Source: Pseudomonadota bacterium
Lineage (GTDB): Bacteria > Pseudomonadota > Gammaproteobacteria > Pseudomonadales > Oleiphilaceae
Assembly (NCBI GenBank): GCA_002747395.1
Contig: PDPE01000031.1
Span: forward strand, 37,812-101,811
Length of the DNA: 64,000 nt
Direction: 5' to 3'
Made by a program: the position numbers and the translations under genes. The notes beneath the pieces are model-generated. The model was not told where the DNA came from. It was given only the letters and a program-made list of their open reading frames with translations, and searched no databases. This document shows, piece by piece, positions 4,360 through 15,343 of the stretch. Each line of letters starts with the position of its first letter. Position 1 is the stretch's first letter.

Positions 4360-4974
4360 GTGTCCGAGATACAGTTTATTGCCAGTTGTAAATTGCCAAC
4401 CCCGTTTGGCGAGTTTGATATGTATGGTTTCGAAGATGAGTCCGGTAAAGAGCATATTGCGTTGGCGCTGGGTGAACTGGATGATGATTCACCGGTATTG
4501 ATGCGTACCCATTCGGAATGTCTGACCGGAGATGCGCTTTATAGTATGCGTTGTGACTGTGGCTTTCAGTTAAATCAGGCGCTGAAGTCGATTGCGGAAG
4601 AAGGTCGGGGTGTCATTCTTTACCTCAGGCAGGAAGGTCGTGGTATCGGTCTGCTGAATAAAATTCGAGCCTATCGTTTGCAGGATGAGGGCGCGGATAC
4701 GGTAGAGGCCAATGTACAACTCGGATTTGCTCCTGACCTTCGAGATTACCGGGTCTGCAAGGGAATGCTGAGGCATCTGGGGGTCACGTCGATTCGCTTG
4801 ATGACCAATAATCCAAAAAAAGTCAATGCGTTGAAAGAGTGCGGTATCGATGTTGTGGAACGGGTGAGTATCGAAGTGGGGCGCAACCCGCACAATGAGT
4901 TTTACCTCAATACCAAGGCGACCAAAATGGGCCATTACCTGGTGACGCACCAGGACGATGAGCCGGTTTCCTGA
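4360..4974 (+). CDS. ribA: GTP cyclohydrolase II
   Basis: 204 aa with a GTG start. Carries the [21 protein letters not shown] zinc/catalytic motif and the [17 protein letters not shown] motif. Confidence 0.93.
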
Positions 4975-5002
4975 TATTGACCTGTAAACCTGATTTGACT
5001 TC

Positions 5003-5007
5003 TTGTA
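5003..5007. repeat. Left copy of the 5-bp direct duplication TTGTA (candidate target-site duplication)
   Basis: TTGTA lies immediately outside the left inverted repeat. An identical pentamer lies immediately outside the right inverted repeat at 6713-6717. Confidence 0.7.
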
Positions 5008-5046
5008 GGCCCGGTTACCGCATAGCTGCATAAAGTGCCAACTTTT
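5008..5046. repeat. Left terminal inverted repeat (39 bp)
   Basis: GGCCCGGTTACCGCATAGCTGCATAAAGTGCCAACTTTT. The reverse complement of 6674-6712 is GGCCTGGTTACCGCATAGCTGTATAAAGTGCCAACTTTT, which differs at 2 positions. Confidence 0.85.
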
Positions 5047-5074
5047 GAAATAACATTGATTTTCCAGAAGGGAT

Positions 5075-5725
5075 ATGAGCAAGGCTATGGATAACGAACA
5101 AAAACAGGAACTGGCCGAACACTGGGCAAAAATGAAAGCATCTTATCGAACGGTCATTTTAATCTTTGTCATTTTGCTCGTCACTTCTTGTGGGAATGAA
5201 ACCAATGATCTGATTGTTCCCCAAAATACAATAAAGGAGTATGTTTGCAAACATACTGATAACATAAGAGAAGGTAGTGCAATTTATCGTAAAACAGATG
5301 AGCATGGTCAAGCTTTCGATTTTAAGATAATTTCGGTCATACGAGATAATCTTTATACGATCATTATGGAAAGCATTAACGATGTAAGTGTGCGACAGGA
5401 ATGGACTTATAGCTCATGTGAAGAGCCCTTACCGAGTAATCTGGACTCTTTGATTCAACAGGTTGTCTTGCATAATTTTAGCGTTGATAACGATTTTCCT
5501 CAAAGTGCTGACTGGATTCAAGAATGTGAGAGTTCTGTATCTGCTCAACTTAAAACTGACTATACACAATTCTGTAGAGTTTCCGATGCCAATTCACCCT
5601 GTTATTACGAAATTGAGACCGTCACAGATATCAACCAGGATTATCCGATAACAGGTCTAATTAACTACAGATCATACAATCCTGACTTCACACAAAGCAT
5701 AGAGCTTATTTCGTGGAGCCATTAG
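5075..5725 (+). CDS. Hypothetical Cys-rich lipoprotein (element cargo)
   Basis: 216-aa ORF. The internal Met at 5132 gives a classic lipoprotein signal MKASYRTVILIFVILLVTSC (lipobox VTSC). The mature part has 7 Cys and no family I recognise. The true start (5075 or 5132) is unresolved. Confidence 0.6.
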   Translation: MSKAMDNEQKQELAEHWAKMKASYRTVILIFVILLVTSCGNETNDLIVPQNTIKEYVCKHTDNIREGSAIYRKTDEHGQAFDFKIISVIRDNLYTIIMESINDVSVRQEWTYSSCEEPLPSNLDSLIQQVVLHNFSVDNDFPQSADWIQECESSVSAQLKTDYTQFCRVSDANSPCYYEIETVTDINQDYPITGLINYRSYNPDFTQSIELISWSH

Positions 5726-5791
5726 CCGGTTTTGAAAAGTAGATCGCAGGTCTCTGTGTGACATGATCTCGATAGATGAGATAGCTACGTA

Positions 5792-6007
5792 CTATATTTT
5801 ACATCTCTCAGATGCTGGCAACCATCTGTATAAAGTGGGTACCGAAACGCCCAAATCCCGGGCGACATCCTTTGGCGGAACCCCATCAGCGAAAAGACGC
5901 TTTGCTGACTTCAACTTTGACTCTGTCTTCGCTCTTTTACGACCTCCGATCCTTCCTCTTTTTCTTGCAGCATCAAGCCCTGCATTGGTTCGTTTCAATA
6001 ATAGCTC
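5792..6007 (-). pseudogene. Serine recombinase (resolvase/invertase) remnant: C-terminal HTH domain only
   Basis: KRTNAGLDAARKRGRIGGRKRA...GVPPKDVARDLGVSVPTLYRWL matches the linker plus HTH end of Hin/Tn3-type resolvases. An in-frame stop lies 4 codons upstream of the TTG at 5998. The roughly 120-aa catalytic domain is absent. Confidence 0.75.
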
Positions 6008-6016
6008 TCTATAACC

Positions 6017-6295
6017 TCACTCCTTGACAAGCGAAGTAAAATCAGACCATTGTTCGACCCTGAATGCACGAATGTCTCTCACGGAGTTCGGGAACCAGGA
6101 AAAACTTTTTAGCGCAGTGATTGCCCGGAACAGATTTGCCATGTCTTCATCATCGGTCACATACAAACTGTCTTGAACTCGATTGAAGCCAAAATTACTC
6201 AGCGAACTCCCGATATCGTTGTATGCCTGTGTCACCCCTTCAGGATGATGCTTTTCTGTTTCTGCGACAACCAGGTCAAATGCGATTGCAAACAT
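6017..6295 (-). CDS. vapD: VapD-family endoribonuclease (Cas2-fold toxin)
   Basis: 92 aa. MFAIAFDLVVAETEKHHPEGVTQAYNDIG...DMANLFRAITALK...VRDIRAFRVEQWSDFT closely follows the VapD sequence pattern (MYAIAFDL...HP.G..QAY.DI...DIRAFR.EQWSDFT). Confidence 0.85.
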   Translation of the reverse strand: MFAIAFDLVVAETEKHHPEGVTQAYNDIGSSLSNFGFNRVQDSLYVTDDEDMANLFRAITALKSFSWFPNSVRDIRAFRVEQWSDFTSLVKE

Positions 6296-6301
6296 AATGC
6301 T

Positions 6302-6502
6302 TTAATGAGCAACAGGATCATTTTGGACTTTGGAGAACTTGTACTCGATCTCTTCGCCAGTTTCAGCAATCCGTATAAGAACCAACCAGTCGTTGTCATC
6401 CAATTTTCGAACAGGGGAGCAAATCTTGTAGGTCGGCCCAAATTCACCGAACTGGCGAAATTGTCCAAGCAATTCAGGTGACGGGAATAAACTGTCCGGC
6501 AT
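6302..6502 (-). CDS. Small protein upstream of vapD (candidate antitoxin / VapX-like partner)
   Basis: 66 aa. A GAGGT SD lies 5 nt before the ATG. Its stop is 6 nt before the vapD ATG, which suggests a bicistronic TA-like arrangement. I recognise no family by eye. Confidence 0.55.
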   Translation of the reverse strand: MPDSLFPSPELLGQFRQFGEFGPTYKICSPVRKLDDNDWLVLIRIAETGEEIEYKFSKVQNDPVAH

Positions 6503-6673
6503 AGTAACCTCGAAATGCTATCAAAACCCGTGAAAGCGTATACAATTTATAATCTGGAATCAAGAGAGGTTTTTGATAACCAAATACAGTCTTTATGGCC
6601 ATTTTTCTGCCCCATCAGTAATGGCTCTTGAAAACGCTCGTTTTTGAGAATGCGGAATATCGAACTGAAATGT

Positions 6674-6712
6674 AAAAGTTGGCACTTTATACAGCTATGC
6701 GGTAACCAGGCC
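6674..6712. repeat. Right terminal inverted repeat (39 bp)
   Basis: AAAAGTTGGCACTTTATACAGCTATGCGGTAACCAGGCC is the inverted copy of 5008-5046, matching at 37/39. Confidence 0.85.
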
Positions 6713-6717
6713 TTGTA
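6713..6717. repeat. Right copy of the 5-bp direct duplication TTGTA
   Basis: Identical to 5003-5007 and directly abuts the right inverted repeat. Confidence 0.7.
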
Positions 6718-6742
6718 GAAGGGCAGGCCAATCCGTCTGCCT

Positions 6743-8587
6743 TTAACCCGCCGCTCCTGTGTCATTTCTCCGAGTCGCTCTGGTGCGAACCCGTTGCAAG
6801 TTCTCTCTGGCAGTTTTTTCGATAGACTGCCAGTCCAGTCCGCATAGCGAACGTAATTCAGCCTGCTTTCCGTGGGGCATAAACCGGTCGGGAATGCCCA
6901 GAATTTGCAATGGAGTGGAAACCCCCTGTTGACAGAGAAACTCGGCTACACCGCTGCCGGCTCCTCCCATCGCCGAGCCTTCTTCAATGCTTAGCAACAG
7001 TTCATGGTGTGCCTGTAAAGAAAGAATCAGGGAGCCATCCAGAGGTTTGACAAAGCGCATATCCACCACAGTGGCATCCAGTTTTTCAGCCGCTTTAAGT
7101 GCCTCGTGCAGCACAGTGCCGAAGCAAAGCATGGCGACGGATTTCCCCTCTCGAAGGATTCGGCCTTTGCCTGTTGGTAATGCCTTCATTTGCTGCTTTA
7201 TTTCTGCTCCATAGCCGACTCCCCTCGGGTACCTGACGGCCGCCGGCCCATTGTGGTGATAGCCGGTAAACAGCATTTGGCGGGTTTCATTTTCATCGCT
7301 TGGCGCCATGATAACCAAATTGGGAATGCAGCGCAGAAAAGCCAGGTCAAATGTGCCCGAATGAGTGGCGCCATCTTCTCCAACCAACCCGGCCCGGTCT
7401 ATGGCAAACAATACATCCAGGCCCTGAATGGCAACGTCATGGATCAGTTGGTCATAAGCGCGTTGCAGAAAGGTTGAATACATCGCGACAACCGGTTTGA
7501 CACCGTCACAGGCCATACCGGCTGCCAGTGTCACGGCATGCTGTTCGGCGATGGCAACATCGTGATAGCGGTCAGGAAAACGTTGGGCAAAGGCAACCAG
7601 ATCCGAGCCTTCTTTCATGGCAGGAGTGATTCCGACCAGCCTCTTGTCCTGTTCGGCCATATCGCAGATCCATTGACCGAAGACACCGGAAAATGTCGGG
7701 TGTGAGGGTGTTTTTCGGGTTATGGCTGTTCGGGTTGTGATGGTATCAGCAGATTTGGCCTCGATTTTGTTAATGGCATGGTAACCAATCGGATCTGCTT
7801 CCGCAGGGGCGAAACCTTTACCCTTTTTGGTAATGATGTGTACAAACTGCGGGCCACCTGATTCCGAAGCCGTTTGCAAACTGGCAATCATGGCGTGAAT
7901 ATCATGTCCGTCTATGGGGCCAGTGTAGTGGAAACCCAATTCTTCAAACAGGATGCCTGGATTCGTGGAATTGCAGTAATTGGACAGGCCGCCCACATTG
8001 TTGGAAATCGACATGTCGTTATCGTTCAGTATGACCAGCAAATCTGCCTGTTTGTCTCCGGCATGGTTTAACGCTTCAAAGGCCATTCCCGCAGTGATGG
8101 CACCGTCACCAATGACGGCAACCGCCTTCCTTTTTTCTCTGGTGATTTCTGATGCAAGTGCCATTCCAAGTGCTGCACTGATTGATGTGCTGGAATGGCC
8201 GGTTCCGAAACAGTCGAAGATGCTCTCGTCACGTTTCGGAAAGCCGGACAAGCCTTCGATATGTCGGATATGCTGCATTTGCTCCCGGCGCCCGGTCAAA
8301 ATTTTATGCGGGTAGGCCTGATGCCCGACATCCCAGATGATTCGATCAACAGGCGTATTGAATACATAATGCAGTGCTATGGTCATCTCGATAACGCCAA
8401 GCCCTGCACCAAAATGCCCACCGGACTTACCGACGCAATAAAGCAGGTAAGCTCGCAACTCGCAGGCCAGACTGTCCAGTTGATTCGCTGAAAGCAGGCG
8501 AAGTTGTGCCGGAGAGTCAATACGATTCAACAGGGGGGTATCGGGTCTCTGATCGGGTATTTCGTGAAACAGTTGTGTATAAGACAT
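6743..8587 (-). CDS. dxs: 1-deoxy-D-xylulose-5-phosphate synthase
   Basis: ThDP motif [18 protein letters not shown]; also [20 protein letters not shown] prefer the ATG at 8587 ([11 protein letters not shown]) over the TTG at 8602 from the ORF track, but the start is uncertain. Sits in the xseB-ispA-dxs order. Confidence 0.95.
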
Positions 8588-8640
8588 TGGTGCTCGGGTC
8601 AAGGGAAGCTCGGCTGGAAGCCACTACCATGCTACAAAAA

Positions 8641-8742: not shown

Positions 8743-9633
8743 CTAATGGTTACGGTTGATAATGTAATTGCTGATTGCTTGCAGAAGTGTGAAATCCACA
8801 TCCTTCAGAGTGCCCAGGGCCTCCAGAGCGAGTTGATGCAGTTGACTGCATCTTTCCCTGGCTGCATCAAGCCCGAGGATGGCCGGGTAGGTGGCCTTGC
8901 TCAATGCGTGGTCTGCCCCTTGTTGCTTGCCCAGGGTTCGAGTGTCACCTTCCACATCAAGAATATCGTCCCTGACTTGAAACGCGAGTCCGGTGCATCG
9001 GGCAAAAACGCGCAGGGTGGATAGCGTTTGCTCATTGTTGACACCGGCGGACAAGGCACCCAGCACTACGCTGGCCTCGATCAATGCTCCGGTTTTGAAC
9101 AAATGCATGCTTTCCAGTTCGCTGATACCTGGCGTTTTTCCTTCGGATGCCAGGTCAATAGCCTGTCCGCCAACCATCCCCTGACTGCCACTGGCTACTG
9201 CCAGCGTGCGGATCATTTCAAGCTTGATCTTGTCGCTTAACGAGGGGGCTTCGCCAAGCAGTTGAAAAGCCATCGCCTGCAGCGCATCTCCTGTCAGTAT
9301 GGCGGTGGCTTCACTGAACTGAATATGGCAGGTGGGCTTGCCCCTTCGGAGTGCGTCATTGTCCATGGCGGGCAGGTCGTCGTGTACCAGGGAATAGGCG
9401 TGTATCAGTTCTACCGCACAGGCCGGCGCGGTGGCGATATCGGCATTCCCCCCCATTGCTTGCGCAGTGGCAAACACCAGGCAGGGTCTGATGCGCTTGC
9501 CGCCGTCAATGGTGCTGTAGCGAATGGCCTGGTGCAGCGTGCCGGGCAGTGTCGATTCCTGTGGCAGCCATTCCATTAATGCCGAATCGGTGCGCTGCTT
9601 GCATTGCTGAATATAAACTTCGATGTCAGTCAT
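8743..9633 (-). CDS. ispA: (2E,6E)-farnesyl diphosphate synthase
   Basis: First Asp-rich motif LVHDDLPAMDNDALRRG and second motif FQVRDDILD. The start is trimmed to the ATG at 9633 (MTDIEVYIQQ), which overlaps the xseB stop by 8 nt. Confidence 0.93.
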   Translation of the reverse strand: MTDIEVYIQQCKQRTDSALMEWLPQESTLPGTLHQAIRYSTIDGGKRIRPCLVFATAQAMGGNADIATAPACAVELIHAYSLVHDDLPAMDNDALRRGKPTCHIQFSEATAILTGDALQAMAFQLLGEAPSLSDKIKLEMIRTLAVASGSQGMVGGQAIDLASEGKTPGISELESMHLFKTGALIEASVVLGALSAGVNNEQTLSTLRVFARCTGLAFQVRDDILDVEGDTRTLGKQQGADHALSKATYPAILGLDAARERCSQLHQLALEALGTLKDVDFTLLQAISNYIINRNH

Positions 9634-9904
9634 CTGCGCCGTTACCTGCAGTAGATGGATCAACAGCAGATGACTCAACTGCAAATGGCTCAAATGTCAT
9701 TTTTTCGTCCGCACCAACAAGCCGGTTTACCTTCTGTTGGGCATTTTTCAAAGTCTGTTGACAGTGATTGCTGAGCCTGACGCCTCGCTCGAATGCAAGG
9801 AGCGAGTTATCCAGTGTCATATCGCCTTTTTCCATTTGCCGAACAATGTCTTCCAGCTCCGCCAGGGAGGACTCAAAATCGGGTGGTTGGTTTTTGTCAG
9901 ACAT
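9626..9904 (-). CDS. xseB: Exodeoxyribonuclease VII small subunit
   Basis: Contains FESSLAELEDIVRQMEKGDMTLDNSLLAFERGVRLSNHCQ. The start is trimmed to MSDKNQ at 9904. Confidence 0.9.
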   Translation of the reverse strand: MSDKNQPPDFESSLAELEDIVRQMEKGDMTLDNSLLAFERGVRLSNHCQQTLKNAQQKVNRLVGADEKMTFEPFAVESSAVDPSTAGNGADD

Positions 9905-10050
9905 AACGTATTTCGGTTCCTGTTTCGAGTTTGGTTGTTGGTCGATCATGTTGGTCGATCACTATTACTGTGTCAATTCACCAACTTGCTGTGCAAGTTG
10001 ATTATTCCAGCGCACCAGTTCACTATTCGTTTGCCGATTCAAGGTGTTAT

Positions 10051-10072
10051 CCGGCATATAACCGGCATATAA
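10051..10072. repeat. Perfect 11-bp tandem duplication CCGGCATATAA x2
   Basis: Read directly in the xseB/pomA divergent spacer. Confidence 0.8.
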
Positions 10073-10241
10073 AATGCTCGCCAGTCAGTAGAACATATCC
10101 ATGATTTTTATTTAAATACGACTACACTATATAAAAACAGAAACCCATTATAACAATTTGCAGAATATTTGGTGGATCATGCAGAAAATATTGCCTGTTT
10201 GCACTCGATTTCTGCCCTGTTTATTGATTGTCTGGTTGGTT

Positions 10242-10274
10242 GTCGGTTGATCGTCGGTTGATCGTCGGTTGCGA
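10242..10274. repeat. 11-bp tandem repeat GTCGGTTGATC x3 (third copy diverged)
   Basis: GTCGGTTGATC GTCGGTTGATC GTCGGTTGCGA, about 70 bp upstream of the pomA start. Confidence 0.8.
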
Positions 10275-10341
10275 TTTGGGCTGTTCCGGCGGTATGAAAT
10301 GGGCTGAAACATACAACTGGCGGCAAGATGAGGAGTAAAGA

Positions 10342-11100
10342 GTGGATTTAGCTACCATTATCGGGATGGTCGGTGGTTTTGGAATTGTGGTCGCGGCCAT
10401 GGTGCTTGGCGGGGGGATCGGCATGTTTGTCGATGTACCTTCGACCCTTATTGTATTCGGGGGGGCGATTATGGTAACCATGTCGAAATACCCGCTTGGC
10501 AGTTTCCTGGGCGCGGGAAAAACGGTCGCGAAAGTGTTTATGTTCAAACTGGACAAGCCCGAAGACCTGATTGGACAAATTGTCGAGCTTGCCGATGCTG
10601 CACGTAAAGGCGGACTGCTATCGCTGGAAGGCAAGGAAATCAGCAACGACTTCCTGGCCAGGGGAATTCAGCTCCTGGTGGACGGCCATGATGCCGATGT
10701 GGTTAAAACGTTGCTGACCAAAGACAAGAGTCTTGCGGTGGAGCGGCATAGTCAGGGAAGTGGTGTCTGGGCCACGATGGGGGATGTGGCACCGGCCATG
10801 GGGATGATTGGTACCCTGGTTGGTCTGGTGGCCATGCTGTCAAATATGGATGACCCGAAATCCATCGGGCCTGCCATGGCGGTCGCCCTGCTTACCACTT
10901 TGTATGGTGCGGTAATAGGGAACATGATTGCATTTCCGTTTGCAGACAAACTGAAAGTACGCGCGGGGGAAGAAGAAATGATCAAAAGTATGATTATCGA
11001 TGCCTTGCTGGCGATTCAGGCCGGGCAAAATCCCCGCGTTGTTGAAAGCATGTTGCGAACTTATTTGCCTGAGGGCAAACGGGAAGCGGCAGAGTTATGA
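10342..11100 (+). CDS. pomA: Flagellar stator protein PomA (MotA family, Na+-type)
   Basis: 252 aa with a GTG start and an AGGAG SD. MDLATIIGMVGGFGIVVAAMVLGGGIGMFVDV and VAPAMGMIGTLVGLVAMLSNMDDPKSIGPAMAVALLTTLYG are near-identical in pattern to Vibrio PomA. Lies beside xseB-ispA-dxs as in Vibrio. Confidence 0.93.
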   Translation: MDLATIIGMVGGFGIVVAAMVLGGGIGMFVDVPSTLIVFGGAIMVTMSKYPLGSFLGAGKTVAKVFMFKLDKPEDLIGQIVELADAARKGGLLSLEGKEISNDFLARGIQLLVDGHDADVVKTLLTKDKSLAVERHSQGSGVWATMGDVAPAMGMIGTLVGLVAMLSNMDDPKSIGPAMAVALLTTLYGAVIGNMIAFPFADKLKVRAGEEEMIKSMIIDALLAIQAGQNPRVVESMLRTYLPEGKREAAEL

Positions 11101-12092
11101 GTGGCGAAGAAGAGCAAAAATGTGAATGTCCGGCGGGACTGCCTGGCTGGTTGGCAACCTTCGCCGATTTGATGTCGCTGTTGATGTGTTTTTTCGTTCT
11201 GTTGCTGTCTTTCGCTGAAATGGATGTACTCAAGTTCAAGCGCCTCGCCGGGTCAATGAGGAGCGCATTTGGTGTGCAGAACCAGGTGAATGTCAATGAC
11301 ATCCCGAAAGGCACCAGTATTATTGCCCAGGAGTTTTCGCCCGGCAAGCCGGAACCTGCTCCCCTGAAAGTTGTGATGCAGCAAACTGCAGATCCGGACA
11401 AGCAGTCCCTGGAGTTGCTTTGTGAAGCGGAGGTCGAAAAGGCACTGGAAGAACAGTGCGACCAGACGGAGGGAGAGGAAAACAAGGAGCATGAAGCTGT
11501 TGTGCAAAAGCTTCAGAAAATGATTGAAGAAACAGAAGAGAACGCGATGGATCTGGCCGCCAGGCTTGAGTCGGAAATTCGCAACGAACAGGTTGAAATT
11601 GAAACCGAGGGGCGGAAAATTGTCATCCGGGTACACGAAAAAGGCTCGTTTGCTTCCGGCTCGGCGGAGCTTCAGGATGACTTTATTCCCATTCTGGAGA
11701 AACTGATTTCCAGCCTGAAGGAGATCGAGGGTAGTATCTCTGTAGAAGGGCATACGGACAGCATTCCGATCAAGACCGCTGCGTTTCCTTCCAATTGGGA
11801 TTTGTCTATTGCCCGGGCACTGGAGGTGGCCAGAGGGTTGTTTGATGATGGTGGCCTGGACCAATCCCGTTTTCGGATTCTGGGGTTTGCGGACACAAGA
11901 CCTCTCGTGCCGAATAATACGGCGGCCAATCGCGCCATCAATCGTCGTGTCGAAATTGTTTTACAGCAACCGACGGGAGAGGAAAGAAAAGAGGAGTTGA
12001 AAAGAATGCGTGAGTATCAGTCTGATTCTTCCTCTGAGAGTGAACCGGCGGAAGATGATATTTTTGATCTGGACAGTAATGAAATTTTCTAG
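11097..12092 (+). CDS. pomB: Flagellar stator protein PomB (MotB family, OmpA-like C-terminus)
   Basis: Has the PomB-type N-terminus KCECPAGLPGWLATFADLMSLLMCFFVLLLSF with the essential Asp. The C-terminal OmpA-like region is GHTDSIPI...NWDLSIARALEV...NRRVEIV. ATGA overlap with pomA. Confidence 0.93.
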   Translation: MSGEEEQKCECPAGLPGWLATFADLMSLLMCFFVLLLSFAEMDVLKFKRLAGSMRSAFGVQNQVNVNDIPKGTSIIAQEFSPGKPEPAPLKVVMQQTADPDKQSLELLCEAEVEKALEEQCDQTEGEENKEHEAVVQKLQKMIEETEENAMDLAARLESEIRNEQVEIETEGRKIVIRVHEKGSFASGSAELQDDFIPILEKLISSLKEIEGSISVEGHTDSIPIKTAAFPSNWDLSIARALEVARGLFDDGGLDQSRFRILGFADTRPLVPNNTAANRAINRRVEIVLQQPTGEERKEELKRMREYQSDSSSESEPAEDDIFDLDSNEIF

Positions 12093-12101
12093 GATACAGG
12101 C

Positions 12102-12743
12102 ATGGCACAGCAAGAACGGCGTCGCTTTTTTAGAATTACTGACAAGGTGCTGATGAGTTACCGTGTTGTTGGTGATAAGAGCAACGACAGTAACGAGAGT
12201 AACGAAAGTGAGCAGAGTGAGCAATCCGGCGTGGCCGGGGTATCCACCGGGGGAATCCGGCACGAACTAAATGTCCTGGAGGAAAAACTGAATAAAAAAA
12301 TGACCAGGCTAAGAGGTGACGAGCCTCTGATAGCGGAAGTGCTTGAGTTGTTTAATCAAAAGATAAACCTGCTTGTTGGCGAGGATGGCAAGGCAATCTC
12401 CGACTCGGGCGAGGACGATAAACAGGTAATGGAAGTGAATATGAGTGCTTGCGGTATTGCTTTTCCGTCAAGCGAAAAAATATCGGTCGGGGCCTTGCTG
12501 GTACTCAACCTGACACTGACGCTTTCCTTTGTCAATTTGTGTCTGTCAGCGCAAGTGGTAGGAGTGGAAGAGCGCTGCATCGACAGTGATGACGAGGCTG
12601 GTGGCCTCTCCCGCCAGCCCTGGGTGATTCGCGCGGATTTTGTAGATATCTCCGAGGTTGACCAGGAACTGCTGATACAAAATGTTATCAAGCGGCAGTC
12701 CGAGCAGTTAAAGGCTCTGCGAGAAGCAAGAGAAAAGGCCTGA
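12102..12743 (+). CDS. PilZ-domain protein with a long insertion between the RxxxR and NxSxxG motifs
   Basis: ERRRFFRI (RxxxR at residues 7-11) and NMSACG (D/NxSxxG at residues 113-118). Starts 9 nt after the pomB stop. Confidence 0.75.
   Translation: MAQQERRRFFRITDKVLMSYRVVGDKSNDSNESNESEQSEQSGVAGVSTGGIRHELNVLEEKLNKKMTRLRGDEPLIAEVLELFNQKINLLVGEDGKAISDSGEDDKQVMEVNMSACGIAFPSSEKISVGALLVLNLTLTLSFVNLCLSAQVVGVEERCIDSDDEAGGLSRQPWVIRADFVDISEVDQELLIQNVIKRQSEQLKALREAREKA
12189..12224 (+). repeat. In-frame 9-bp tandem repeat inside the PilZ gene
   Basis: AGTAACGAG AGTAACGAA AGTGAGCAG AGTGAGCAA, encoding SNESNESEQSEQ. Confidence 0.8.
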
Positions 12744-12758
12744 ATTGCAGGGTGGATG

Positions 12759-13568
12759 TCAGGGAGCTCTGTCAAAATGCTGTTCAGTGAAATTGTCGGG
12801 TTGCCCTCCGGGTGCGTAACTTTGCTCAAAAAAACTGATTTTACCCTTGTAGCTGACAGTGACCAGAGTCGTCGCCCGCGTGCCGTAGTAGTGCCCTTTT
12901 ATAAAAATCGGAGACAGCAAGAGTTCTATGTCTCGGGGAACCCCGGTTTGCGGGAGCTGCGCTTTCGGCGCGGGCTGGCTGTCAGTAAAGAGTTGTGCAA
13001 TTTCTGTCCAGATTGTTTGCACCCCTTTCTCTTCCTGAATTGACGTATCGACTATCCGGGAAAAGCGCAGCCTGCTTTTTTCAACCTTGGGCCAGGGTGT
13101 ATCCAGCAAGTGATTGCTCAACCCGTAAATACCCGGTTTGAGTTCAATGGCGCCCGGGGTACGATCTTCAGTATTCTCCGGGTCGCAGAGTCGGTTGCTC
13201 AGGTAGTACATGCCGTGCGCGTCTTTCAGGACAAGGTTGAAACCCGCGTAGTCTTGCATGGTGAGGCCTTGTGTGTAGGTCGGGCAACGGGTGTTTGCGT
13301 CAAGAAAGTCTGATACGAGGTGGCCGCGAGAGCAGGGGTAGTCTTTCTCTCCCGGTTTCCGGTAGTTGGTGACGGCTGAAACATGGCCGCTTTTATTGAC
13401 GCCAAACCAGGTGCCGCCCTGTTCTTCGTCCCTGCCGGCATATATCCGATTGTCTTTCCCCCAGAAAAAGGCCGACCGGCTTGGGCGATGAAAAAATTCA
13501 TCCCGGTTGCCAGCCATGATCAGCTCGAACTCCGGGTGGTAGCGATAGGCAAATACGATCAGGCACAT
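12759..13568 (-). CDS. NRDE-family protein (TANGO2/DUF833-like)
   Basis: N-terminal MCLIVFAYRYHPEFELIMAGNRDEF carries the Cys2 and the eponymous NRDE motif. 269 aa. Confidence 0.85.
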   Translation of the reverse strand: MCLIVFAYRYHPEFELIMAGNRDEFFHRPSRSAFFWGKDNRIYAGRDEEQGGTWFGVNKSGHVSAVTNYRKPGEKDYPCSRGHLVSDFLDANTRCPTYTQGLTMQDYAGFNLVLKDAHGMYYLSNRLCDPENTEDRTPGAIELKPGIYGLSNHLLDTPWPKVEKSRLRFSRIVDTSIQEEKGVQTIWTEIAQLFTDSQPAPKAQLPQTGVPRDIELLLSPIFIKGHYYGTRATTLVTVSYKGKISFFEQSYAPGGQPDNFTEQHFDRAP

Positions 13569-13663
13569 GCCATCATGGTATTGGAAAAAAATAAAAAGTG
13601 CCAGAAAAGTGAAATTCGAGTGTCAGGGAAAACTGATGTATGATAGCGCTCCCTGATCCTGTG

Positions 13664-13746
13664 CGTCAGGAAAAGGCTATTGTCAGGAAAGTGCTACTGT
13701 CAGGAAAGAGCAACTGTCAGGAAAGTGTTACCGTTAGAAAGGGAAA
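13664..13746 (+). repeat. 17-bp tandem array (5 copies) of (U/C)GUCAGGAAAG-type GGA motifs, ending 4 nt before the tauE-like ATG
   Basis: Motif starts fall at 13664, 13681, 13698, 13715 and 13732, an exact 17-bp period. The three central copies are identical (TGTCAGGAAAG). A further copy, TGTCAGGGAAA, lies at 13621. Confidence 0.85.
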
Positions 13747-13750
13747 ATAG

Positions 13751-14548
13751 ATGGAATTTGTTGTCACACTCATGGCCTATCTGGGGCTCGGCGCGTTTGC
13801 GGGCACTCTGGCTGGCCTTTTTGGTATTGGTGGTGGTCTGGTGATTGTGCCGGCGCTGGTGTTCGGGTTTCAGTTTCAGGGTGTCGATCAACAGGTGTTG
13901 ACCCATCTTGCTGTGGGCACCTCTCTGACCACCATCATTATTACTTCAATGAGTTCGGTGCGTACACATCACCAAAAAGGTGCGGTAAACTGGGCCATAT
14001 TCAAGCCGCTTGCTGTCGGTATTGTGCTTGGGGCATGTCTTGGAGCCAATACGGCCTCCAATATAAAAGGGCCGGTTTTGCAAACGATTATTGGCGTGTT
14101 TGCCATTGTCATTGCAATCCAGATGCTACTGGCACTGGCGCCCAAACCAACGCGGTCACTGCCCAATGACGGCACCCTGTTTGCGACAGGCGGAGTATTT
14201 GGCTGGGCATCCGCGATCTTCGGTATTGGTGGAGGCAGCCTGATTGTTCCCTATTTGTCCTGGTGTAACGTGAAAATGCAGGAAGCGGTGGGTACGTCTT
14301 CTGCCTGCGGCTTTCCCATTGCGGTGTCGGGCGCGGTGACCTATATCTATCTGGGTTGGAATAATCCGCTGTTGCCGGATTATTCCACCGGGTTTGTCTA
14401 CTGGCCCGCCTTTGTGGGTATTACCCTGACCAGTGTATTGTTTGCGCGTTTGGGAGCCAAACTGGCGCACAGCCTGTCTTCTGTTATGTTAAAACGAATC
14501 TTTGGAGTGTTGTTGTTATGTGTGGGAACGCGTTTCTTGCTGGGATGA
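13751..14548 (+). CDS. TauE/SafE (DUF81) family anion permease
   Basis: 265 aa, polytopic. The N-terminal GAFAGTLAGLFGIGGGLVIVPALVF and the internal FGIGGGSLIVPYL repeat are typical of the family. Confidence 0.85.
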   Translation: MEFVVTLMAYLGLGAFAGTLAGLFGIGGGLVIVPALVFGFQFQGVDQQVLTHLAVGTSLTTIIITSMSSVRTHHQKGAVNWAIFKPLAVGIVLGACLGANTASNIKGPVLQTIIGVFAIVIAIQMLLALAPKPTRSLPNDGTLFATGGVFGWASAIFGIGGGSLIVPYLSWCNVKMQEAVGTSSACGFPIAVSGAVTYIYLGWNNPLLPDYSTGFVYWPAFVGITLTSVLFARLGAKLAHSLSSVMLKRIFGVLLLCVGTRFLLG

Positions 14549-14557
14549 TGGATTGAT

Positions 14558-15343
14558 ATGTTGAAATACCCTCAGATCGACCCCGTTGCCCTGTCTCTCG
14601 GGCCAGTCAAAATCCATTGGTATGGTTTGACCTATCTTGTCGGCTTTGCCGGAGCCTGGTATCTGGGAACCCGGCGGGCTGCGAGGGCAACCTCCCCGAT
14701 CAGGCCGGAGCAAATGGGAGACCTGATCTTTTACAGTGCCCTGGGTGTTGTCCTGGGTGGACGTTTTGGCTATGTGTTCTTTTATAATTTTGACAGGTTT
14801 CTGGCGGATCCGGCCTGGGCACTGAAAGTGTGGGAGGGGGGGATGTCCTTCCACGGTGGCCTGCTCGGGGTGATTCTTGCCATGCTCTGGTATGCCAGAA
14901 AGCTGAATACCACCTTTTTCCAGTTGACCGACTTTGTTGCCCCTCTGGTTCCGATCGGTTTGGGGATGGGGCGAATAGGTAACTTTATTGGTGGCGAACT
15001 CTGGGGCAGGGCGACAGATGTGCCCTGGGCAATGGTGTTCCCCCGTGCCGACGACCTGGCGCGGCACCCCTCGCAGCTTTATCAGTTTGCCCTGGAAGGG
15101 GTGGCGCTGTTTTGCATTCTGTGGTGGTACTCTGCCAAAGACCGGCCCAAAATGGCAGTCTCGGGCATGTTCCTCCTGTGGTATGGTATTTTCCGGTTTG
15201 TTGTAGAGTTTGTCCGGGAGCCGGATGCCCATTTGAGCTTTATCGCATTTGAGTGGTTGACCATGGGGCAACTGCTATCATTGCCGATGATTTTCGCAGG
15301 CATCGGTTTTATTCTTTATGCACACAGAAAAGAGCACAAGTAA
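14558..15343 (+). CDS. lgt: Prolipoprotein diacylglyceryl transferase
   Basis: Motifs [23 protein letters not shown] and [14 protein letters not shown]. Forms an lgt-thyA pair. Confidence 0.95.

Follow-up and report, generated by a model that had tools for sequence, protein, structure and literature searches.

The contig PDPE01000031.1 of a gammaproteobacterium of the Oleiphilaceae was analyzed over a stretch of 64 kb (hereafter the window, numbered from its first letter), in which a 1705-bp element (5008-6712) lies between the convergent genes ribA (4360-4974, + strand) and dxs (6743-8602, - strand). It contains three intact open reading frames (ORFs) and the remnant of a fourth gene. In the direction of transcription of its toxin-antitoxin (TA) genes, the element consists of a terminal inverted repeat (IR), a res-like region, vapX, vapD, a truncated tnpR, an opposed passenger gene for a putative lipoprotein, and the second IR (Table 1). 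We are confident that it is a non-autonomous deletion derivative of a replicative transposon of the Tn3 family.

Table 1. Features of the element and of its target site (window coordinates; loci numbered with L are described in the text).
Feature	Position	Strand	Remarks
Left target-site duplication	5003-5007		TTGTA, read directly; identical to 6713-6717
Left 39-bp terminal IR	5008-5046	+	GGCCCGGTTACCGCATAGCTGCATAAAGTGCCAACTTTT; tip GGCCC
Passenger ORF, Cys-rich putative lipoprotein, 216 aa	5075-5725	+	alternative starts at 5087 and 5132
tnpR remnant, serine resolvase (end of the E-helix plus HTH_7), about 73 codons	5792-6013	-	HTH_7, E 3.8e-8
vapD, Cas2-like endoribonuclease toxin, 92 aa, apparently intact	6017-6295	-	PDB 6ZN8_A
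VapX-like antitoxin gene, DUF5397, 66 aa, apparently intact	6302-6502	-	PF17375, E 1.5e-18
res-like region	6503-6650	-	aligns with the tnpA-to-TA interval of L011, L013, L081 and L094
Junction between right IR and res-like region, 23 nt	6651-6673	-	expected place of tnpA; no homology to L011/L013
Right 39-bp terminal IR	6674-6712	-	37/39 to the left IR; tip GGCCT
Right target-site duplication	6713-6717		TTGTA, read directly

The two IRs differ only at IR positions 5 and 22. A match to the 39-mer pair was found in 0 of 100 shuffled windows, a scan of the whole window returned no other long inverted repeat of comparable quality, and no third copy of the 39-mer lies within the 64 kb. The composition of the element is foreign: its GC content is 0.418, whereas the window as a whole has 0.51 and the 2-kb flanks have 0.508 and 0.520, and the window minimum over 1705 bp (0.415) falls in a stretch starting at 5001 that overlaps the element. 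An earlier note on this DNA had described repeats matching at 37 of 39 positions, the direct pentamer TTGTA on their outer sides, an A+T-rich interior, and a gene content of a Cys-rich lipoprotein, a C-terminal fragment of a serine recombinase and vapD with a small partner. The repeats and pentamers were found as described, the composition was confirmed on computing the GC content, and the gene list was upheld by the ORFs and by family searches.

Genes kept and functions lost

The VapD protein matched Haemophilus VapD (PDB 6ZN8_A) over residues 1-91 with an E-value of 3.8e-35, while its match to the NCBIfam family VapD (E 1.4e-8) stayed under the family cut-off. The DUF5397 protein encoded upstream, on the same strand and with 6 nt between the two genes, matched VapX in the same structure (6ZN8_C, E 5.8e-5). 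Both ORFs are full length, and by these matches the pair is predicted to be a TA module of the VapXD type; its fold and the adjacent upstream antitoxin gene would place it in type II. The Haemophilus influenzae VapXD system (PDB 6ZN8; PMC3560280, PMC11980593) likewise has a small antitoxin gene upstream of the toxin gene, but is a stand-alone chromosomal or plasmid locus, whereas the pair described here, the activity of which is putative, lies within a transposition module.

The region upstream of vapX carries repeated half-sites of the type T(C/A)TCAAAAAC / GTTTTGA, including TCTCAAAAACG...CGTTTTCAAGA, TTATCAAAAAC and GTTTTGATA. By its position and repeat structure it looks like a res site, and we refer to it as a candidate res site; it probably also holds the promoter of vapXD.

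On the other side of vapD, the remnant of tnpR continues in the vapD frame immediately past the vapD stop codon (...LVKE*GYRELLLKRTNAGL...), and its largest ORF encodes 68 aa (5792-5998, - strand, with a TTG start at 5998). The remnant is 64-78% identical to the C-termini of tnpR relatives from genome loci, and its alignment to the 185-aa TnpR of an Endozoicomonas locus (L011) shows homology from about codon 114 onward. The remnant thus lacks a start codon and about 113 N-terminal codons, including the catalytic domain, consistent with the C-terminal fragment recognized in the earlier note.

The 68-aa helix-turn-helix (HTH) protein might instead be a conserved stand-alone regulator derived from a resolvase C-terminus. 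A protein search gave only short relatives (43-128 aa, 45-81% identity), and one genome carries two identical 77-aa copies located 300 bp from the 5′ ends of tnpA genes, as such a regulator family would suggest. However, at 80 genome loci most of the tnpR relatives lie in full-length ORFs of at least 185-190 aa with the catalytic Ser motif, full-length tnpR directly follows vapD in L011 and in two further loci (L008 and L013), and the short matches start at many different positions, as truncations or gene calls from internal Met codons would. The word-indexed protein search with the 73-aa query returned only proteins of up to 128 aa, although relatives of about 186 aa and similar identity exist, indicating that length distributions from such a search can mislead because of a bias to short proteins. 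A stand-alone family of short resolvase HTH proteins was thus rejected as very unlikely, and we regard the remnant as a broken tnpR.

The passenger ORF encodes a lipoprotein-type signal with the lipobox VTSC, as read from its translation. It has no Pfam match and no NCBIfam family over threshold, and the only homologue found for it among 5.8 billion proteins was itself. Its GC content (0.379) is the lowest within the element, and a single-sequence AlphaFold2 model, with a predicted local distance difference test score (pLDDT) of 44.9, was uninformative on its fold. Passenger genes of Tn3-family transposons usually sit distal to tnpR beside the IR (PMC7157771), and the ORF occupies this same place, distal to tnpR and adjoining an IR.

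No Tn3-family TnpA was found by tblastn with 37 TnpA queries, either in 4900-6800 or in the whole window. Within the element there was no remnant of tnpA up to an E-value of 10, and none of the element ORFs contains a TnpA domain (DUF4158 or DDE_Tnp_Tn3). The element therefore does not encode the TnpA expected of an autonomous member of the Tn3 family. Of the resolution module, the res-like region is conserved with four other elements, while of tnpR only the C-terminal 73 codons are left. The loss of tnpA and of the catalytic domain of TnpR makes the element non-autonomous for both transposition and resolution; the missing tnpA and broken resolvase had already been recognized in the earlier note, and both were substantiated by the tblastn searches and the tnpR alignment.

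Relatives of the ends and of the inner module

We found relatives of the window IRs in several other contigs and plasmids. The IR of a Vibrio parahaemolyticus plasmid (L096, GGGGTAGTTACCTCATAGCAACGTAAAGTGCCAACTTTT) matches the window IR at 31/39 positions and at 28/32 over positions 8-39, and that of a Vibrio maritimus plasmid (L098, GGGGCAGTTACC...) also at 31/39; beyond the latter IR come a passenger gene, then tnpR with a frameshift and tnpA in a decayed state. Both IRs of an element on the Methylomonas sp. AM2-LC plasmid CP157006 (L101 12001-15905) match at 29/39 positions, and they bound 3.9 kb encoding a resolvase and an intact TnpA of 990 aa (PF13700 and PF01526). Both IRs of a Klebsiella plasmid element (L102, GGGGTAGTGACCGGGTAGCTGCGATAACTGCCAACTTTT) match at 28/39 and bound 2.3 kb without two-thirds of tnpA, flanked by a 5-bp duplication of ATGTA. 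The IR of an element of Methyloglobulus morosus KoM1 (L081, 5751 onward) matches at 25/39 and lies 45 nt from an intact tnpA. Finally, the two ends found in a further contig (L074) match at 29/39 (L074a) and 22/39, and the L074a end abuts the remnant of a TnpA C-terminus (E 2e-6). A match of 29/39 at a given position would be expected by chance with a probability of about 1e-10. The TnpA proteins of L081, L101 and L102 share 63-78% mutual identity, indicating that the window-type IR family travels with one TnpA clade. By these comparisons, the window IRs share a common origin with those of transposons that encode a Tn3-family TnpA.

The L101 and L081 elements share with the window IRs the blocks TAGCTGC and AAAGTGCC. 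They are autonomous, and differ from the window element in encoding an intact TnpA of about 1000 aa together with a full resolvase, and in the tips of their IRs (GGGGTAGT). The resolvase of L101 is only 32-36% identical to that of the window. L081 shares the res-like region, and the C-terminus of its TnpR is 67% identical to the window fragment, but it carries a DUF433/PIN-like pair in place of VapXD. This pair (DUF433 and DUF5615/PIN-like, L081 8991-9652) is located in a transposon that appears intact, with the res-like region on one side and tnpR on the other, and is a candidate for a further TA type in a Tn3 module.

Several observations concern the Klebsiella plasmids. The L102 element (9001-11324, NZ_CP040992.1) is made up of tnpR and the C-terminal third of tnpA, in this order, between its two IRs. 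The Vibrio-type query IR is matched with 79.5% identity in about 175 plasmid records, most of them from Klebsiella and other enterobacteria; the two Klebsiella records that were examined carry the L102-type IR, which is present as a solo IR in pKP048 (L100 6001-6039). The RefSeq label of the Klebsiella-type element is "Tn3 family transposase" only, and a literature search with its IR string found nothing relevant. This element may be Tn5403, a tentative name on which nothing here depends. Tn7, the IS2 group, IS1380 and other families that generate 5-bp duplications were considered and set aside; TGT...ACA or TG...CA termini are absent, and homology favours Tn3.

The interior has relatives of its own. 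Window positions 6036-6487 (vapX-vapD) and 5805-6010 (3′ part of tnpR) match the DNA of L011 (Endozoicomonas), L013 (Sansalvadorimonas) and L008 (a gammaproteobacterial metagenome-assembled genome, MAG), in all of which DUF5397, vapD and a full-length tnpR occur in direct succession beside a Tn3-family tnpA. Close relatives of the tnpR fragment adjoin Tn3-family transposases with DUF4158 and DDE_Tnp_Tn3 domains. In L011 a tnpA of 973 codons is divergent from the DUF5397-vapD-tnpR operon, and the homology between L011 and L013 starts at a canonical 38-bp IR (GGGGTCACGCCATAGAAAGGAAAAAATCGTACGCTAAG). A Sulfuriferula plasmid is annotated in the same order, with a Tn3 family transposase followed by divergent genes for DUF5397, a "virulence factor" and a recombinase. 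The unit of DUF5397, vapD and resolvase, including the 150 bp upstream, thus recurs beside Tn3-family transposases in Endozoicomonas, Sansalvadorimonas and Sulfuriferula. Complete Tn3-family transposition modules colinear with the resolvase fragment, VapX/VapD and the region upstream are present in L011, L013 and L094. The VapXD-tnpR arrangement is found in five elements (the window, L008, L011, L013 and L094). The earlier note had read the locus as a decayed or non-autonomous Tn3-family derivative and had offered the family as an inference; this assignment is now backed by the homology of both the IRs and the res-TA-tnpR module, and the derivative status by the absence of tnpA and the truncation of tnpR.

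As a separate observation, direct repeats of about 120 nt in L008 (7190-7300 and 9890-10010) bracket a decayed Tn3-family element with a fragmented tnpA, truncated vapX and vapD, and an intact tnpR. Either insertion into a repeated element or joint duplication with one may account for this layout.

Insertion site, end tips and timing

Removal of the element and one TTGTA reconstructs a spacer of 58 nt between ribA and dxs (...GATTTGACTTCTTGTAGAAGGGCAGGCC...). The closest RibA proteins among 5.8 billion sequences are 79% and 75% identical to the one encoded here, and in both of their genomes convergent ribA and dxs, separated by only 20 and 37 nt respectively, are followed by ispA-xseB-motA as in the window. 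With this junction uninterrupted in the relatives, the 1.7 kb is most probably a derived insertion, and we read it as that of a mobile element. The earlier placement of the element between convergent genes, and the short spacer expected on its removal, hold. Furthermore, the 5-bp duplications made by Tn3-family elements favour A+T-rich targets, to which TTGTA conforms (PMC4133298).

The earlier note had also suggested a target within the loop of a small hairpin shared by the two genes, which was not borne out. The stem comprises 4-5 bp, and the reconstructed spacer folds to -14.8 kcal/mol as compared to -12.2 ± 2.6 kcal/mol for shuffles (z = -0.98). The main folding energy comes from a separate hairpin of the right flank (GGCAGGC...GUCUGCC, about 6721-6742) beside the stop codon of dxs. 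A structured target formed by CTTC TTGTA GAAG is thus not supported, and a scan for promoters and terminators returned nothing over shuffles. The insertion would separate ribA from the 6721-6742 hairpin. The passenger ORF is co-oriented with ribA and vapXD with dxs, and read-through from ribA into the passenger ORF and from dxs into vapXD may express these genes.

The convergent setting of the spacer, together with the CTTC and GAAG around the duplication that can pair, would also fit a reading in which the 39-mers form a pair of palindromes resembling repetitive extragenic palindromic (REP) sequences or terminators, around an islet of unrelated genes. We consider this extremely unlikely because the 39-mer is found nowhere else in the window and has homologues at the ends of Tn3-family elements that carry a transposase, the 39-mers are flanked by a 5-bp direct repeat without mismatches, the interior is a res-TA-tnpR module of the Tn3 type, and the spacer folds no better than chance.

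Look-ups of the exact VapD and RibA proteins yielded no empty site of the same species; the only contigs returned carry this locus and come from two assemblies of one organism. These contigs, from the MAG GCA_002754885.1 ("Proteobacteria bacterium") and from a Logan contig (SRR6011892), are identical to the window but for a run of N. In the GenBank MAG contig (L001) a scaffold gap of 13 N at 7935-7947 lies in dxs, where the window has 127 nt (8349-8475), and this gap results in a shorter dxs gene call without a Pfam match.

Further copies of the ends, named as a check in the earlier note, were not found in the window, species genomes, viral contigs and plasmids. A 23-mer of the IR core had 0 matches in viral contigs and in the genomes of 185,579 species, a degenerate 25-mer built from the window and L074 ends had 0 matches in viral contigs, and the plasmid database PLSDB contained only the diverged IR relatives. 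One match to the degenerate 25-mer in JGI metagenomes (L089) was dismissed as chance, since the outer 14 nt are missing and the surrounding sequence is coding and low in GC.

Several points weigh against the derivation of the element from a Tn3-family transposon. The collections searched yielded neither a second copy of the ends nor a matching transposase. Exact matches to VapD and RibA were found only at this locus, and the passenger lipoprotein ORF has itself as sole homologue. The nearest relatives with an uninterrupted junction are only 75-79% identical in RibA, and none is of the same species. Both ends start with GGCC(C/T) and not GGGGT, and present-day mobilisability is uncertain. Finally, the L011 and L013 ends, which are the canonical GGGG...ACGCTAAG, match the window IR at only 8/39 positions, and no IR like that of the window adjoins the closest tnpR homologues (L003-L010). 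The unrelated L011/L013 ends imply that the res-TA-tnpR module and the window ends have separate histories, and by these comparisons the element is a mosaic of modules. It would combine the ends that belong to the L081/L101/L102 TnpA clade with a res-vapXD-tnpR module also found behind other ends. Module shuffling is commonplace in the Tn3 family.

The tips of the ends deserve separate consideration. Box A of Tn3-family ends, 5′-GGGGT, is highly conserved and directly contacted by TnpA (PMC9579193); it is typical of the family without strictly defining it, and both ends of the element lack it. The window ends start with GGCCCGG and GGCCTGG, and the L074 ends with GGCCCAA and GGCCCAG, whereas all other relatives of the window IR have GGGG tips, every one of them starting with GGGG(T/C)AGT. 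The earlier note had cautioned that the ends do not start with GGGG. This caution was warranted, yet the GGGG-tipped relatives indicate that the tip is a derived variant and not the mark of another family. Because the same variant is present at both ends together with a normal 5-bp duplication, the simplest reading would be a transposase that tolerated GGCC tips, with parallel changes at the two ends following insertion as the less likely course. In their IR interior the L074 ends resemble the Klebsiella type (24/32) and the window ends the Vibrio type (28/32), and the GGCC tip thus occurs on two IR backgrounds. The L074 contig that carries both GGCCC-tipped ends also contains, at 11610-14877, an intact Tn3-family element with tnpA only (TnpA of 1034 aa), the 43-nt IRs of which start with GGCT rather than GGGG.

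Following the mechanism of the family, TnpA would have bound both 39-bp ends, and these would have been joined to 5-bp staggered cuts in the A+T-rich TTGTA of the ribA-dxs spacer. Replication and resolution of the cointegrate would then have left one copy between the duplicated TTGTA. The element would now be immobile alone and would move only with a matching transposase in trans, and the VapX/VapD pair, located between res and tnpR, may have preserved the remnant by addiction. We infer this transposition mechanism, and likewise the res function, the TA activity and the timing of the deletions.

With regard to timing, there is about an even chance that a complete transposon inserted and then decayed in place by two internal deletions, of tnpA and of the 5′ two-thirds of tnpR. 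This would explain the single copy in everything searched; decay in place is frequent in the relatives (frameshifted or fragmented tnpA or tnpR in L007, L008 and L099), and the deletion in tnpR, which is useless for mobilisation, resembles erosion. However, no fragment of tnpA remains, and the IRs, the res-like region and the TA ORFs are intact, making the element cleaner than its frameshift-ridden relatives. It is also quite possible, if short of probable, that the element was already transposase-less and was moved in by a TnpA acting in trans, in the manner of the mobile insertion cassettes (MICs) or TIME-RES elements considered below. The clean junction between the IR and the res-like region would fit such an arrival, as would the layout of IR, res, (TA), tnpR and IR without tnpA, which is that of the experimentally mobile TIME-RES (PMC4133298). 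Moreover, the 2.3-kb L102 derivative, which has the same IR family and lacks most of tnpA, has its own 5-bp duplication. On the other side, neither another copy nor a partner transposase was found, and with tnpR truncated, the resolution of cointegrates would depend on a related resolvase or on RecA.

Elsewhere in the window, a second low-GC patch (0.40-0.43) is located at 9800-10400, in the intergenic region before a motA-like gene at 10342. In addition, four tandem 17-nt units (GTCAGGAAA[A/G]NGCTAYT) at 13665-13732 lie just upstream of an ORF at 13751-14548 and could be an iterated regulator-binding site.

Relation to known transposase-less elements and TA modules

Elements of the Tn3 type that lack a transposase, have IRs of 38-40 bp, make 5-bp duplications and are transposed in trans have been described as TIMEs, TIME-COMPs and TIME-RES (Szuplewska et al. 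2014, PMC4133298). The TIME-RES consist of IRs, res and a resolvase gene, and their mobility was shown experimentally (PMC4133298). The Tn3-type MICs of Xanthomonas carry passenger genes and no transposase (PMC7157771, PMC4337579). TIME-RES and MICs are the described elements closest to that of the window, which resembles both in the absence of a transposase, in its Tn3-related IRs of 38-40 bp and in a 5-bp duplication in an A+T-rich target. Like TIME-RES it has, between single IRs, a res-like region and a resolvase gene, the latter as a remnant, and it shares with MICs the passenger genes. In contrast to TIME-RES, the mobility of which was shown, its resolvase is truncated and a TA pair is added, and its own mobility is putative. 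Its GGCC-tipped IRs belong to another subgroup than the Tn5563-type IRs of TIMEs. A strict TIME is non-coding and had 262 bp in the founding examples, while the element has 1705 bp and three intact ORFs; it is thus not a strict TIME, but has the single IRs, inner genes and lack of a transposase of the MIC/TIME-RES type.

According to Lima-Mendez et al. (2020, PMC7157771), TA pairs in Tn3-family transposons typically border on res and immediately precede tnpR, and this res-abutting arrangement, co-directional with tnpR, holds in 33-37 of 39 cases (PMC7157771). The pair in the window element has the same slot and direction, but consists of VapX/VapD (DUF5397 and a Cas2-like nuclease). This pair is outside the TA types catalogued in Tn3 transposition modules, and in the literature searched no paper places VapD in the res-tnpR slot of the family.

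For annotation, these findings mean that gene callers would list the cassette as four unrelated small genes between core genes, whereas once its ends are recognized, a low-GC islet, a "partial resolvase" and a TA pair beside ribA and dxs are all accounted for. The known mechanism of Tn3 transposition is unchanged by either the VapX/VapD slot or the GGCC tips. Alongside this slot, the GGCC-tipped ends that made a normal 5-bp duplication are one of two modest data points, and if functional these ends would bear on how TnpA reads box A. We propose only tentatively, as a combination that we consider rather unlikely, that GGCC(C/T) is a working alternative to box A and that VapX/VapD is a further TA type recruited with res-tnpR into Tn3 modules. 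If this were true, there would be a lineage of Tn3-family transposases with altered recognition of the end tips, able to mobilise this cassette, and VapX/VapD would have been recruited into the Tn3 modules of several marine and freshwater proteobacteria. The presence of VapX/VapD in the res-proximal slot extends the published list of five toxin families, and it fits the idea that TA pairs belong to the transposition module and may lend stability even to dead copies.

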